This document shows positions 26,774 through 33,627 of a stretch of 64,000 bases of DNA, one piece after another. Under the pieces are notes generated by a model. The model saw nothing but the letters and a program-made list of their open reading frames with translations, had not been told where the DNA came from and ran no database searches. Both the position numbers and the translations under genes were made by a program. This DNA is from a virus. Its lineage: Duplodnaviria; Caudoviricetes. The stretch spans positions 5,362 through 69,361 of the IMG/VR virus record IMGVR_UViG_3300037515_000354; one strand, given 5' to 3'. Within the stretch, counting starts at the first letter, position 1, and each line of letters opens with the position of its first letter.

Positions 26774-26971
26774 ATGGAGACCAACCAGTACGCGACTGAG
26801 TCCAACACCTCCGTCTGGTACGAGGTGCAGCGCCAGTCCGGCAGCAACTACGGCTGGATCACTCTCTCCGACCACGACACCCGCGAGCAGGCAGAGAGCG
26901 CCATGGATGCCCGGACGGGTTCGGTCGCCGACCCCAGCTACCGGATCCGCCGGGTGCGCGGACAGGCATAA
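26774..26971 (+). CDS. Hypothetical protein
   Basis: Stop TAA abuts hammerhead 1. Confidence 0.7.
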   Translation: METNQYATESNTSVWYEVQRQSGSNYGWITLSDHDTREQAESAMDARTGSVADPSYRIRRVRGQA

Positions 26972-27031
26972 GGCGAAACGCCCCTCGGGGCGTCCGCCGG
27001 GGGTGCCTCCCCGGCGCTGATGAGCCAGGCA
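26972..27031 (+). ncRNA. Type II hammerhead ribozyme 1 (predicted cleavage after C26994)
   Basis: GGC-GAAA-CGCCC/GGGCG-TC-CGCCGGGG/CCCCGGCG-CTGATGA-GCC; loop TGCCT pairs with tail AGGCA. Confidence 0.92.
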
Positions 27032-27051
27032 CACGGACACAGGGAGCGATC

Positions 27052-27246: not shown

Positions 27247-27250
27247 TCAA

Positions 27251-27310
27251 GGCGAAACGCCCCTCGGGGCGTCCGCCGGGGGTGCCTCCCCGGCGCTGAT
27301 GAGCCAGGCA
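27251..27310 (+). ncRNA. Type II hammerhead ribozyme 2 (cleavage after C27273)
   Basis: Identical to copy 1. Confidence 0.92.
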
Positions 27311-27330
27311 AACGAACCGAGGAGCCGGTC

Positions 27331-27531: not shown

Positions 27532-27550
27532 CTGATCTCCGTCTGATCAA

Positions 27551-27610
27551 GGCGAAACGCCCCTCGGGGCGTCCGCCGGGGGTGCCTCCCCGGCGCTGAT
27601 GAGCCAGGCA
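27551..27610 (+). ncRNA. Type II hammerhead ribozyme 3 (cleavage after C27573)
   Basis: Identical to copy 1. Confidence 0.92.
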
Positions 27611-27624
27611 CGGAAGGAAAGATC

Positions 27625-28007: not shown

Positions 28008-28009
28008 GA

Positions 28010-28073
28010 GGCGAAACGCTCCCTCCGGGGAGCGTCCATCGGGCATGGTCCCCCGGTGCTGATGAGCCGGACC
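28010..28073 (+). ncRNA. Type II hammerhead ribozyme 4, divergent (cleavage after C28036)
   Basis: Same core; compensatory stems CGCTCCC/GGGAGCG and CATCGGG/CCCGGTG; loop TGGTC pairs with tail GACCA. Confidence 0.92.
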
Positions 28074-28089
28074 ACGAGGAGGAGCGATC

Positions 28090-28951: not shown

Positions 28952-30145
28952 ATGCAACTCACTCTCCGTAAGGGCACTCTCCAGGATCTGGCCACCGAGC
29001 TGGCCGAGCAGCAAGAGCGCAAGAACGATCTCGTCGTCCCCGCGTCCAAGCTGTGGTCCCACAACGGCAACGTGATCGTTGCCGGTGGCCGCCCCGAGCG
29101 GATCGACTCCGACGGAGTCACTCCCGCCGGGAACCTCGAACTGACCCCGTCCGGCGTGTTCGACACCGGCATGGTGGCCAAGCTGTCGCAGCCCGGCCGT
29201 CCGGTCGGCCGCGCGTTCATCCGTGGGCTGCGCGAGACCGGCCGTACGGACATCATCGACGGCGTGTACAACGGATTGCTGCACGGTAGTGCCGATCTCG
29301 CGGTGCAGGGCGACGCCCGGAAGTTCTTCGTCCGCACCTTCACGGGTCAGGGCGACGGACCGGGCTACGCCCGCGCACTGCTCAGTGACAGCTACCGGCC
29401 GATCGACAACTGGGACGTGCTCGCGACCGTGATCGACGGTCTCACGTCCGCCGGATTCTCCGGCCACGTGGTCCGGCAGGCCGATCTGTCGGACGACAAG
29501 ATGTACCTCCGCGTGTCGGTGCCGGAGATCACGGCGCTCGCGCCTGGTCTGTTGCACGGCTACACCTCGCCTTACGGCGGAGCGCGCGGTGCGGACAACC
29601 CGGTCGTCGAGGCCGGGATCGTCATCACCAACTCGGAGACCGGGGGCGGTGCCTTCACGATCACTCCCGAGCTGGTCGTCCAGATCTGCTCGAACGGGAT
29701 GACGATCAAGCGGGACATGATCCGCAAGACGCATCTCGGGTCCAAGCTCGACGAGGGGCACATGAAGATCAGTCAGCGGACCCTGGCGGCTAACCGTGAG
29801 CTGGTCGCGTCTCAGACCCGCGACGCCATCGAGACGTTCCTGGACGAGGGGTACATGAACCGCGTGCTCCAGCAGATCGAAGCGGGCTCGGACGAGAAGA
29901 TCGCCGACGTCGAGAAGACGATCGAAGTGATCACTCAGCGTCCGGCGTTCGGCAAGGCGGACATGAAGGGCCTTCTCGCCACGTTCATGGACGGAGGCGA
30001 CCGCACGCGCGGCGGTCTGGTGCAGGCGGTCACCGCGTACTCGCAACAGATCGACGACGCCGACCGGGCGTACGAGATGGACGCGGATGCGCTTCCGGCC
30101 GCCGGGTTCAGCAACGTGACCGGCCTGGTTCCCGCCGGACGCTGA
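28952..30145 (+). CDS. DUF932-like protein
   Basis: RALLSDSYRPIDNWDVL; ITNSETGGGAF...QICSNGM. Confidence 0.75.
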   Translation: MQLTLRKGTLQDLATELAEQQERKNDLVVPASKLWSHNGNVIVAGGRPERIDSDGVTPAGNLELTPSGVFDTGMVAKLSQPGRPVGRAFIRGLRETGRTDIIDGVYNGLLHGSADLAVQGDARKFFVRTFTGQGDGPGYARALLSDSYRPIDNWDVLATVIDGLTSAGFSGHVVRQADLSDDKMYLRVSVPEITALAPGLLHGYTSPYGGARGADNPVVEAGIVITNSETGGGAFTITPELVVQICSNGMTIKRDMIRKTHLGSKLDEGHMKISQRTLAANRELVASQTRDAIETFLDEGYMNRVLQQIEAGSDEKIADVEKTIEVITQRPAFGKADMKGLLATFMDGGDRTRGGLVQAVTAYSQQIDDADRAYEMDADALPAAGFSNVTGLVPAGR

Positions 30146-30146
30146 A

Positions 30147-30208
30147 TGATCGGAGGCAGCATGGTGGCCGGTCCCTCCGGGGGCCGGTTGGCCACGGGTT
30201 ACCGATCA
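30147..30208 (+). ncRNA. Unknown 62-nt structured intergenic motif, copy A
   Basis: Terminal stem TGATCGG/CCGATCA and inner stem CCGGTCCC/GGGGCCGG; repeated at 30635. Confidence 0.6.
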
Positions 30209-30218
30209 CTGAAAGGAA

Positions 30219-30446
30219 ATGACCATGGCAGGTAAGTACTTCGTCGACTGGACGGATCCGCCTTTCCCGGCCATCCGGCCTATCGGTGATGCGTCTTCGT
30301 ACGCGGAGCCGATGACTCTGGCGGAAGCCAAGCAGGACATCATCAGCAGCTTCCAGGGGCAGCTCGAACACGCCCGGGACCAGATTCGCCGGACCCGGTC
30401 CCTGAAGGTCGCGGACATCAAGGCGGAAGCCGAAAGGGGCTGGTGA
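30219..30446 (+). CDS. Hypothetical protein
   Basis: AAAGGA RBS. Confidence 0.7.
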   Translation: MTMAGKYFVDWTDPPFPAIRPIGDASSYAEPMTLAEAKQDIISSFQGQLEHARDQIRRTRSLKVADIKAEAERGW

Positions 30447-30637
30447 TCATGCGCGTAGGCGACCTGATCCAGATGACGGTTACCCGATGCGATTCGATCA
30501 TTGAAGTCACCGCTCGGTTCGGGGGGCAGGAAGGACGCGGCCAGGCCCCGAACACCGGGACCCTCGCGCAGGACGTGGCCGCACTCCGGGCGGTCCGCAA
30601 TCTGAAGCGCAAGCTGGACGGCCGACCGGCCGAATGA
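30443..30637 (+). CDS. Hypothetical protein
   Basis: GTGA overlap; stop lies in motif copy B. Confidence 0.6.
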   Translation: MIMRVGDLIQMTVTRCDSIIEVTARFGGQEGRGQAPNTGTLAQDVAALRAVRNLKRKLDGRPAE

Positions 30638-30696
30638 TCGGAGGCAGCATGGTGGCCGGTCCCCTGGGGGGCCGGTCGGCCATGGGTTACCGATCA
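30635..30696 (+). ncRNA. Unknown 62-nt structured intergenic motif, copy B
   Basis: Differs from copy A in the apical loop and two stem-compatible positions. Confidence 0.6.
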
Positions 30697-30714
30697 CAGG
30701 AGGAGCGAGAGTAC

Positions 30715-31194
30715 ATGGACGTAGCAGACATCTTCAAGGATCTCGGAAGCGTGGTGTCCGGCGTCTCCGAGAAAATGGACTGGGCCGAGGACGAGATCGA
30801 AAAGGCTCAGGCCCGGCACGGCGAAACCGGCCGTGGCCCGCTGTGGGGCAGCTTCCGGGCGGTCCGGCAGAACGAGAATCACATGGCCGAAGAGATCATC
30901 TACCGGGCGCACGCCAGGGAGATTCTCGACCGGGTGGCCGCCGGTCGCGACGTCCGTCCCGGCACCGACGCCGAGATGATCGCTGCGCTCCGCGCGTCGT
31001 CGCTGGTGTCGCCACTGCCATCGGCCGCCGCGACCCTGTATTTCCGGATCGCGGCCCGGTCGTTCCCGGAACTGTTCGCCACGGTCATGGCCGTGATCGA
31101 CTTGAAGGCATACGAGGCGGTGCACGGCACGGCCGCCGACGACCAAGAATCCTGGCTCCGGGCCAAGCTGGCCACGGACCGGGGGAAGGACTGA
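30715..31194 (+). CDS. Hypothetical protein
   Basis: AGGAGG RBS. Confidence 0.75.
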   Translation: MDVADIFKDLGSVVSGVSEKMDWAEDEIEKAQARHGETGRGPLWGSFRAVRQNENHMAEEIIYRAHAREILDRVAAGRDVRPGTDAEMIAALRASSLVSPLPSAAATLYFRIAARSFPELFATVMAVIDLKAYEAVHGTAADDQESWLRAKLATDRGKD

Positions 31195-32321: not shown

Positions 32322-32459
32322 CACATACGGGGAGGTACGCGACTCCCATGTCATATCCGCCGAGGGGCCTGAGCGTCGCTGTGACGTCCGGGCCCCGATA
32401 CCTGGGGAGGTTGCACCACCCCGGCTCTGTGCGCCCCGCTGTGGGGCGCACAGAGCTTT

Positions 32460-32928: not shown

Positions 32929-33627
32929 ATGACCATCTACTACAAAACCGTCCGGATGGACGGCACGGACTTCTGGACAGGCACTGTCGACTATGCGTCG
33001 CTGTCCGGTACCGGGCGTTCGCTGCCCCGGTTGCCGGGAGGTCAGTGCTGCGGGCCCGGCGTGTACCACGCATCCACAGTCGCCGCTGAGACGCTGATCG
33101 GTGGCTACTGGCCGTGCAGACTCTTCGAGGTGGAAGGCGAAGCGGTCTCGGAATCCGGGCACAAGCGTGGTTTCCGCACGTTGACTGTCGGCCAGGAGCT
33201 GCCTGCCTGGCGGGCTCTCGGGCCGAACGGCGAAGCAGTCGTCGCACTGATCGAAAAGGCCGAGCGCCTCACAGACGGAGAAATTTCTGGCCTCGGTGCA
33301 GCGTGGAACGAGGCGAGGGACGCGGTGAGTAACGAGGCGAGGAGCACGACGTGGAACGAGGCGAGGGACGCGGCGAGGGGCGCGGCGAGGGACGCGGCGA
33401 GGGGCGCGGCGAGGGAGGCGGCGAGGGAGGCGGCGATGGGCCTGGCAAGGAACACGGTGGGGAACGCGGTGAATCACGCGGCGAAGTACCTCGCCGCGAG
33501 GAACGCGGCGGTGAGTTCGGCGCGGAGTGCGGCAATGGCGATGGTGACCCAGGACTTGATCACCGAAGAACAGTTCCGGATCCTGGCGGACCCGTGGCTG
33601 TCCGTTATGGGCGGGACACCGGCGTGA
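32929..33627 (+). CDS. Hypothetical protein with Ala-rich tetrapeptide repeats
   Basis: AGGAAAGGA RBS; GCCGPGVYHAS; (ARDA/ARGA/AREA)n. Confidence 0.75.
   Translation: MTIYYKTVRMDGTDFWTGTVDYASLSGTGRSLPRLPGGQCCGPGVYHASTVAAETLIGGYWPCRLFEVEGEAVSESGHKRGFRTLTVGQELPAWRALGPNGEAVVALIEKAERLTDGEISGLGAAWNEARDAVSNEARSTTWNEARDAARGAARDAARGAAREAAREAAMGLARNTVGNAVNHAAKYLAARNAAVSSARSAAMAMVTQDLITEEQFRILADPWLSVMGGTPA
33353..33434 (+). repeat. 12-bp imperfect tandem repeat GCGAGGGNNGCG within the CDS
   Basis: About 6 units read directly. Confidence 0.8.

Follow-up and report, generated by a model that had tools for sequence, protein, structure and literature searches.

In E. coli, the REP/BIME hairpins between malE and malF stabilise the mRNA upstream of them. 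In phage T7, the early RNA of 7 kb contains five RNase III signals, and the loops, bulges and mismatches at RNase III target sites lead to single-strand cleavage, which leaves stabilising 3' hairpins (PMC3867540). The same role in processing was proposed by Perreault et al. in 2011 for hammerheads flanking prophage genes, which would cut long phage transcripts into gene-sized mRNAs (PMC3088659); since that year, no role has been settled for the hammerhead arrays of phage operons.

Here we describe an RNA hairpin that occurs twice in a stretch of phage DNA of 64,000 nt (hereafter the window), which belongs to a 69-kb IMG/VR virus record of ~65% G+C; the host of the phage is presumably a high-GC actinobacterium. 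The kind of element, on our reading a processing/stability-type hairpin, is already known. Like the element, the RNase III signals of T7 (R0.3 to R18.5, in early and late mRNAs) are ~60-nt, two-turn hairpins with internal defects, and they too lie between the genes of a long transcript, several per genome, just upstream of the next ribosome-binding site (RBS). The element has no sequence relation to the T7 signals and comes from phages of high-GC, actinobacteria-type hosts, not of E. coli; its loop is smaller (2x1), its core is more strictly conserved across distant phages, and its cleavage is a proposal that we make here.

Results

Two copies of a hairpin in the window

A repeat search of the window returned a pair of direct repeats of 69 nt (30141-30209 and 30629-30697), which are 91% identical and lie 488 nt apart. 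The initial annotation had described this pair as a 62-nt RNA motif with one copy after each of two stop codons and before an RBS, and both the identity of the copies and their coordinates bear out this description (Table 1). In the window, where 0.01 occurrences would be expected, a core word of 20 nt is present exactly twice, and no third copy of the hairpin was found anywhere in the whole 69-kb record. Copy 1 starts two nucleotides past the stop codon of the gene before it, the first three bases of copy 2 are themselves the stop codon of the preceding small gene, and both copies terminate 5-10 nt ahead of the next RBS. On the plus strand between 25760 and 33000, neither a promoter-like site nor a U-tailed terminator-like site was seen, which is consistent with transcription of the region as one long RNA.

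RNAfold gave plus-strand energies of -37.6 kcal/mol for copy 1 and -41.8 kcal/mol for copy 2 (z of -3.3 and -4.2), and the minus strand, at -29.2 and -32.5 kcal/mol, was ~9 kcal/mol weaker. Outside the terminal loop the copies differ by two substitutions, G.U to G-C and A.C to A-U, so that copy 2 has an A-U pair where copy 1 has an A.C mismatch. The fold that had been reported for the pair was recovered with its closing stem, the internal strands common to both copies and the loop that varies (UCCG versus CUGG), and the other changes do keep pairing, as had been stated; both substitutions in fact strengthen the pairing of copy 2. The invariance of the internal strands likewise stands, but these strands are largely paired, and their unpaired part is just a 2x1 loop.

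The contigs from four sediment-metagenome DNA runs were either identical to the window or fragmentary, breaking at the repeat, and yielded no informative variants. Logan contigs of sediment metagenome runs start precisely at window positions 30146 and 30634; since these starts coincide with both copies, the assemblies break at the repeat.

Table 1. Positions of the two hairpin copies, their parts and the surrounding genes and hammerheads (window coordinates).
Feature	Position	Strand	Remarks
Four type II hammerheads, in earlier gaps of the same gene array	26971-27034, 27250-27313, 27550-27613, 28009-28075	+	55-58 bits against the Rfam model
Gene of DUF932-like protein (phrog_1362), before copy 1	28955-30145	+	~396 aa; ORF open from 28826; TGA stop 30143-30145
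Copy 1 of the hairpin	30147-30208	+	R2 model 70.5 bits
Copy 1, closing stem P1	30147-30157 paired with 30198-30208	+	
Copy 1, 2x1 loop	A30158 G30159 opposite G30197	+	
Copy 1, conserved helix base	30160-30167 with 30189-30196	+	includes A30161.C30195 mismatch and bulged G30190
Copy 1, terminal loop	30176-30179	+	
Small gene right after copy 1	30225-30446	+	RBS 30213-30217; start codon 30225
Small gene before copy 2	30443-30637	+	64 aa; TGA 30635-30637 forms the first bases of copy 2
Copy 2 of the hairpin	30635-30696	+	R2 model 74.7 bits; layout of copy 1 at +488
Copy 2, terminal loop	30664-30667	+	
Gene after copy 2	30715-31194	+	RBS 30698-30705; start codon 30715

A family of 20 copies in related phage contigs

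Relatives were reached through alignments of the DUF932-like flanking protein, which has hundreds of homologues on long phage contigs; these alignments led to 57 related viral loci and 33 metagenome loci. A first covariance model was built from the two window copies and a second (R2) from 11 copies, and an exact-pattern scan of IMG/VR was added. Together, the searches place the hairpin in 20 copies on at least 11 uncultivated high-GC phage contigs, with one to four copies per record: four in L128/G001; two each in the window, L195 (one of them, L195a, divergent), L252/G005, L232/G007 and L240/G008; and one each in L129/G002, L187, L184, L194, L212 and L218/G006. Nineteen of these copies score 43-76 bits and the divergent L195a scores 28, compared with ~20 bits for the best chance matches and for the reverse strands. 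Copies within one genome are close to each other, with 91% identity in the window and top stems that are identical or nearly so in L128, L252 and L240 (where the copies differ by 1 nt in the loop), and this near-identity suggests that they arose by recent duplication or gene conversion.

No copy above noise was found in the essentially complete relatives G009, G010, G011 and G013, nor in G004 (96% complete) and the partial G012. The GenBank phage collection matched neither the region nor the element, and a locus search by single protein gave no match. A DNA pattern made from the loop strands only was discarded as too loose, all of its matches beyond the window's own record being chance matches. 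Among the first 120 pattern matches listed for bacterial genome contigs, none folds like the element. Nothing significant was obtained in 5 actinobacterial genomes, and the same holds for the few candidates scored in 151 genomes from the genus to which G014, a Streptomyces, belongs; in 401 genomes of the class of G014, the pattern gave 6 matches, with no hairpin among them, compared with ~17 for the reversed control. The absence of the element from bacteria holds for the genomes sampled here.

Degenerate relatives on L125 and L185 retain a long hairpin and have lost the 5' core strand, so that these copies are either in decay or able to do without the core. Further intergenic hairpins of at least 25 bp are located at G003:40333-40407 (L425) and G007:21429-21501 (L257:3430-3502), one with fragments of the core words and the other unrelated, which suggests a wider class of long post-gene hairpins in these phages. 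An additional long hairpin, at L240:5433-5505 (+), lies on the strand opposite to the two copies of that record; it has a P1-like closing stem and no core, and scores 25 bits.

A single irregular helix with a conserved core

The consensus fold is one almost continuous irregular helix of ~25 bp, formed by ~62 nt. The closing stem, P1, has 6-10 bp and commonly starts with CUGA and ends with UCAG; above it follow the 2x1 loop (AG opposite G), a C-G pair, an A.C mismatch that is conserved in 18 of the 20 copies and replaced by A-U in the other two, four or five invariant pairs and then a bulged G. P2 has 13-17 bp, and the length of the upper helix is constant at 37-43 nt. The top stem is wholly different in sequence between phages and always paired; the terminal loops also vary, most of them being UNCG or GNRA tetraloops, which argues against a conserved tertiary partner. 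The consensus, a single hairpin, contains neither a multi-helix junction nor a pseudoknot. About 17 nt (5' CAGCAUGG and 3' GGCCAYGGG) are invariant in 19 of the 20 copies, and this core is kept even where the DUF932-like proteins are just ~52% identical.

In the 20-copy alignment, 83% of the cells in the two modelled helices are paired, and 10 of the 19 pairs show changes in both partners. Covariation scored 0.354, compared with 0.193 in shuffled alignments (0 of 500 reach 0.354) and with at most 0.147 when the 3' partners are slid. A hand-built MAFFT alignment of 11 copies gave similar figures. RNAalifold, which was run without a supplied structure, returned the same helices with 12 compensated pairs and added a pair between the base that opens the 5' loop strand and the final G of the 3' strand. 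A covariance model from homologues had been named in the initial annotation as a check on its proposal, and with covariation present on both alignments, the motif that was then listed as unknown proves to be a genuine structured RNA. Rfam 15 gave no relevant match at E<=10 on window positions 30050-30800, nor at E<=5 on L252, L218, L212 and L194; as it is absent from Rfam, the family appears undescribed.

G-U pairs are frequent, all copies are co-oriented with the genes, and the tetraloops are of the RNA type; for these reasons we place the structure on the transcript and not on the DNA. A role at the DNA level alone, as a small palindrome that is mobile or as an inverted repeat that binds a protein, would account for the sporadic distribution over orthologous slots, for the near-identical copies in one genome and for the inverted ends, which frequently carry their own stop codon. 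We nevertheless hold it to be extremely improbable, because the G-U pairs become mismatches on the other strand, which scores far lower, because the orientation to the genes is strictly fixed and the loops are RNA-type tetraloops, and because there is no consistent target-site duplication, a flanking 5-nt direct repeat being present at copy 1 only.

Intercistronic slots shared with hammerheads and tRNA genes

All copies lie on the coding strand in short gaps of same-strand small-gene arrays. Each starts at, or at most 15 nt from, the upstream stop codon, the UGA inside the closing stem being that stop codon in ~12 copies, and an RBS-like word follows within ~22 nt of most copies. Type II hammerheads are present in the same arrays (four in the window, six in G001, two in L129, four in L183 and one or two in others), and so are tRNA genes. 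The window copies had been placed in the same slot as the hammerheads, and they do occupy the same kind of intercistronic slot as the four hammerheads upstream. Type II hammerheads (RF02276) thereby share array, strand and stop-to-RBS slot with the element, and they also come in multiple near-identical copies per genome; in contrast to them, the element has no hammerhead core or three-way junction, gives no match at E<=10 and is also found in phages without hammerheads.

A hammerhead lies directly upstream of the DUF932-like gene in L195, L128 and L196, and in L195 and L128 that gene is followed at once by the element or by another strong hairpin. The layout of L195:459-2857 comprises a hammerhead (459-522), the DUF932-like gene (544-1701), the divergent copy (1704-1776), a small gene, a canonical copy (2070-2144) and a tRNA (2785-2857). 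The link between the element and the hammerheads is loose, since four element-bearing records have no hammerhead over the Rfam cut-off (G005-G007 without any match and G008 with a sub-threshold one) and the hammerhead-rich L183 has no element. In L183, four type II hammerheads are located at 405-1556, upstream of the DUF932-like gene. The closest relatives among the loci analysed, L182 and L183, whose DUF932-like protein is 90% identical, have an unrelated hairpin of ~17 bp in the post-gene slot (L182:2140-2260 and L183:4728-4850).

At orthologous slots, the element is replaced by other features or by nothing. In L185 and L191, a tRNA comes after the orthologue of the gene that precedes copy 2, and the orthologues of the gene after copy 2 in L125, L186 and L130 have a plain junction without the element; we therefore regard the element as an optional insert that is interchangeable with other punctuation. 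Interchange with tRNA genes at an orthologous slot is a likeness to tRNA punctuation and t-elements, from which the element differs by having no tRNA-like features, so that recognition by RNase P or RNase Z is not expected.

Comparison with known classes of RNA element

No U-tract follows any copy, and a terminator scan flagged none of them as an intrinsic terminator. The features of a riboswitch were not found either: there is no junction, the RBS lies outside the structure and no terminator follows. In contrast, the anatomy matches that of an RNase III substrate, since P1 and P2 (6-10 plus 13-17 bp) provide in every copy at least 20 bp, or about two turns, of double helix, and since the helix carries defects close to its middle, in the form of the conserved 2x1 loop, the A.C mismatch of 18 of the 20 copies and the bulged G.

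Because it was found near hammerheads, the motif had been put forward as a candidate self-cleaving or ligand-binding RNA, a proposal that the single hairpin of ~25 bp, with no junction and with variable tetraloops, does not support. A new class of small self-cleaving ribozyme, cutting the polycistronic RNA by itself like the neighbouring hammerheads, would be in keeping with the kind of slot and the strand that the element has in common with the four hammerheads, with the ~17 nt that remain invariant across phages whose flanking proteins have diverged to ~52% identity, and with the absence of both an Rfam match and a co-occurring phage protein partner. Searching near known ribozymes is also said to have yielded new ribozyme classes before, in work by Weinberg et al. 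in 2015. We consider such a ribozyme very unlikely all the same: the element consists of one irregular helix that is interrupted by no more than a 2x1 loop, a mismatch and a bulge, its terminal loops are not only variable but structurally inert, the element is found in G005-G007 without a hammerhead match (G008 being sub-threshold), and the degenerate L125 and L185 copies have no 5' core strand. The sole extra pairing available, between a CCCG that follows P1 and the CGGG of the 3' core strand, would form a small hairpin that excludes P1, with which it can only compete, and it shows no covariation. CCCG stands directly after P1 in about half of the 20 copies, and in more if near variants are counted (for example, L128:7336-7339, L232, L240 and L215), and is absent from both window copies. 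A single helix with no junction and with variable loops looks less like a catalytic or aptamer core than like the site of a nuclease or protein specific for double strands.

Such a protein could also act without RNase III. An operator for a sequence-specific RNA-binding protein of host or phage, controlling the translation or decay of the flanking genes, would explain why the strongly conserved core includes an A.C mismatch (18 of 20) and a bulged G, which are typical features of protein recognition, and several copies per genome would permit coordinated control. Phylogenetic profiling, in which 5 of the 7 element-bearing genomes are just 65-78% complete, revealed no protein family common to 7 of 7 element-bearing genomes and missing from 4 element-free ones, so no phage protein tracks the element; moreover, the downstream RBS lies outside the hairpin, making simple occlusion unlikely, and we rate an operator as rather unlikely. 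Neither RNase III nor a dsRBD domain was found in the five element-bearing records searched, whereas the actinobacterial control genome has them. In this respect the records searched resemble T7, whose signals need the host enzyme and no phage-encoded nuclease (PMC3867540).

Several other candidates were rejected. The internal GGAGG-N4-AUG of the window copies is not a conserved start, as the SD-like word is missing in most relatives, the peptide is unconserved and the AUG shares the frame of the next gene in only 8 of the 20 copies, about as many as chance would give. Stop-codon readthrough or bypassing was discarded because the frames do not connect, and PMC10732093 was found not to be relevant. 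A group II intron domain V, a K-turn, a CRISPR-repeat mimic and a retron were set aside, since their defining features are absent.

Discussion

We favour the reading that the element, like the T7 signals, is a hairpin for processing and stability and that a host dsRNA endonuclease such as RNase III cuts it, and we assign this reading a probability of roughly 0.4; taken more broadly, the element is probably a form of RNA-level punctuation, be it a cut, an exonuclease barrier or both. It would stand as a punctuation mark between a stop codon and the next RBS in a long polycistronic phage transcript, where a host double-strand-specific endonuclease, most likely RNase III, would recognise it and where the 2x1 loop, the A.C mismatch and the bulged G would confine the cut to one strand. 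Such a cut would leave the upstream message with a hairpin that protects its 3' end and would set the downstream message free with an accessible RBS, as at the RNase III sites of the T7 early transcript. Transcription as one long RNA, the cleavage and the identity of the nuclease are all three inferred here, from the anatomy that the element has in common with the T7 signals (a two-turn irregular helix, intercistronic, repeated and placed before an RBS, with no phage protein found), from the rule on helix defects in T7 and from the processing proposal for hammerheads. That relatives carry unrelated or distantly related long hairpins in similar slots fits a function driven by structure.

The hairpins in these slots would also suit a passive element, which would not be cleaved specifically and would serve, behind selected genes, as an exonuclease barrier or as a weak terminator or attenuator that has no U-tract. 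Some strong hairpin lies right after the DUF932-like gene in nearly every relative, in several of them with unrelated sequence (L182, L186, L190 and L141), the hairpins are very stable, and REP-type intercistronic hairpins, such as that of malE-malF, act in this way on the upstream mRNA. REP/BIME hairpins protect the cistron upstream of them, as the element would, and both are extragenic palindromes that recur within operons; they differ in that REPs are shorter, chromosomal and present in both orientations, whereas the element always points the same way and its conserved core is asymmetric. A passive role would leave this invariant core and the conserved helix defects unexplained, no copy is followed by the U-tract of a terminator and the space ahead of the next gene is too short for a new promoter, and we judge it to be unlikely.

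Two observations count against the processing hairpin as a substrate of RNase III itself, namely, that an invariant core of ~17 nt exceeds the sequence specificity that RNase III usually requires and that the degenerate hairpins of L125 and L185 are without the 5' core strand. The strict core may point to a dedicated protein or to catalysis. We speculate that the core (the 2x1 loop, the A.C mismatch, the bulged G and the flanking pairs) could be a minimal catalytic or specifically recognised module, either an unusually simple new self-cleaving RNA or a target reserved for an endoribonuclease, of actinobacterial or phage origin, that has yet to be described, although we regard this as a distinctly unlikely possibility. 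If it were true, an element with a catalytic core or a dedicated nuclease would be interchangeable with hammerheads and tRNAs as mRNA punctuation. To our knowledge, the rules that define RNase III sites in actinobacteria are poorly defined, and our search of the literature on RNase III sites of actinophages found nothing usable.

A single gene array combines hammerheads, tRNAs and a conserved hairpin in equivalent slots, with a hairpin or a tRNA after an orthologous gene. This exchange provides a direct route to testing whether hairpin-capped single-gene mRNAs are made by several interchangeable devices. With 20 copies, a covariance model and clear core mutations, the element is a well-defined family outside Rfam, and it is a cheap candidate both for a cleavage assay and for defining the specificity of actinobacterial RNase III.

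Two further features were observed downstream of the copies in the window. A perfect hairpin of 14 bp at 32424-32456 may be a further punctuation element in the same operon, and a tandem repeat with a 12-nt period and at least 10 units (33295-33484) lies inside an ORF of 232 aa (32929-33627), where it codes for a repetitive stretch rich in Ala, Arg and Glu.
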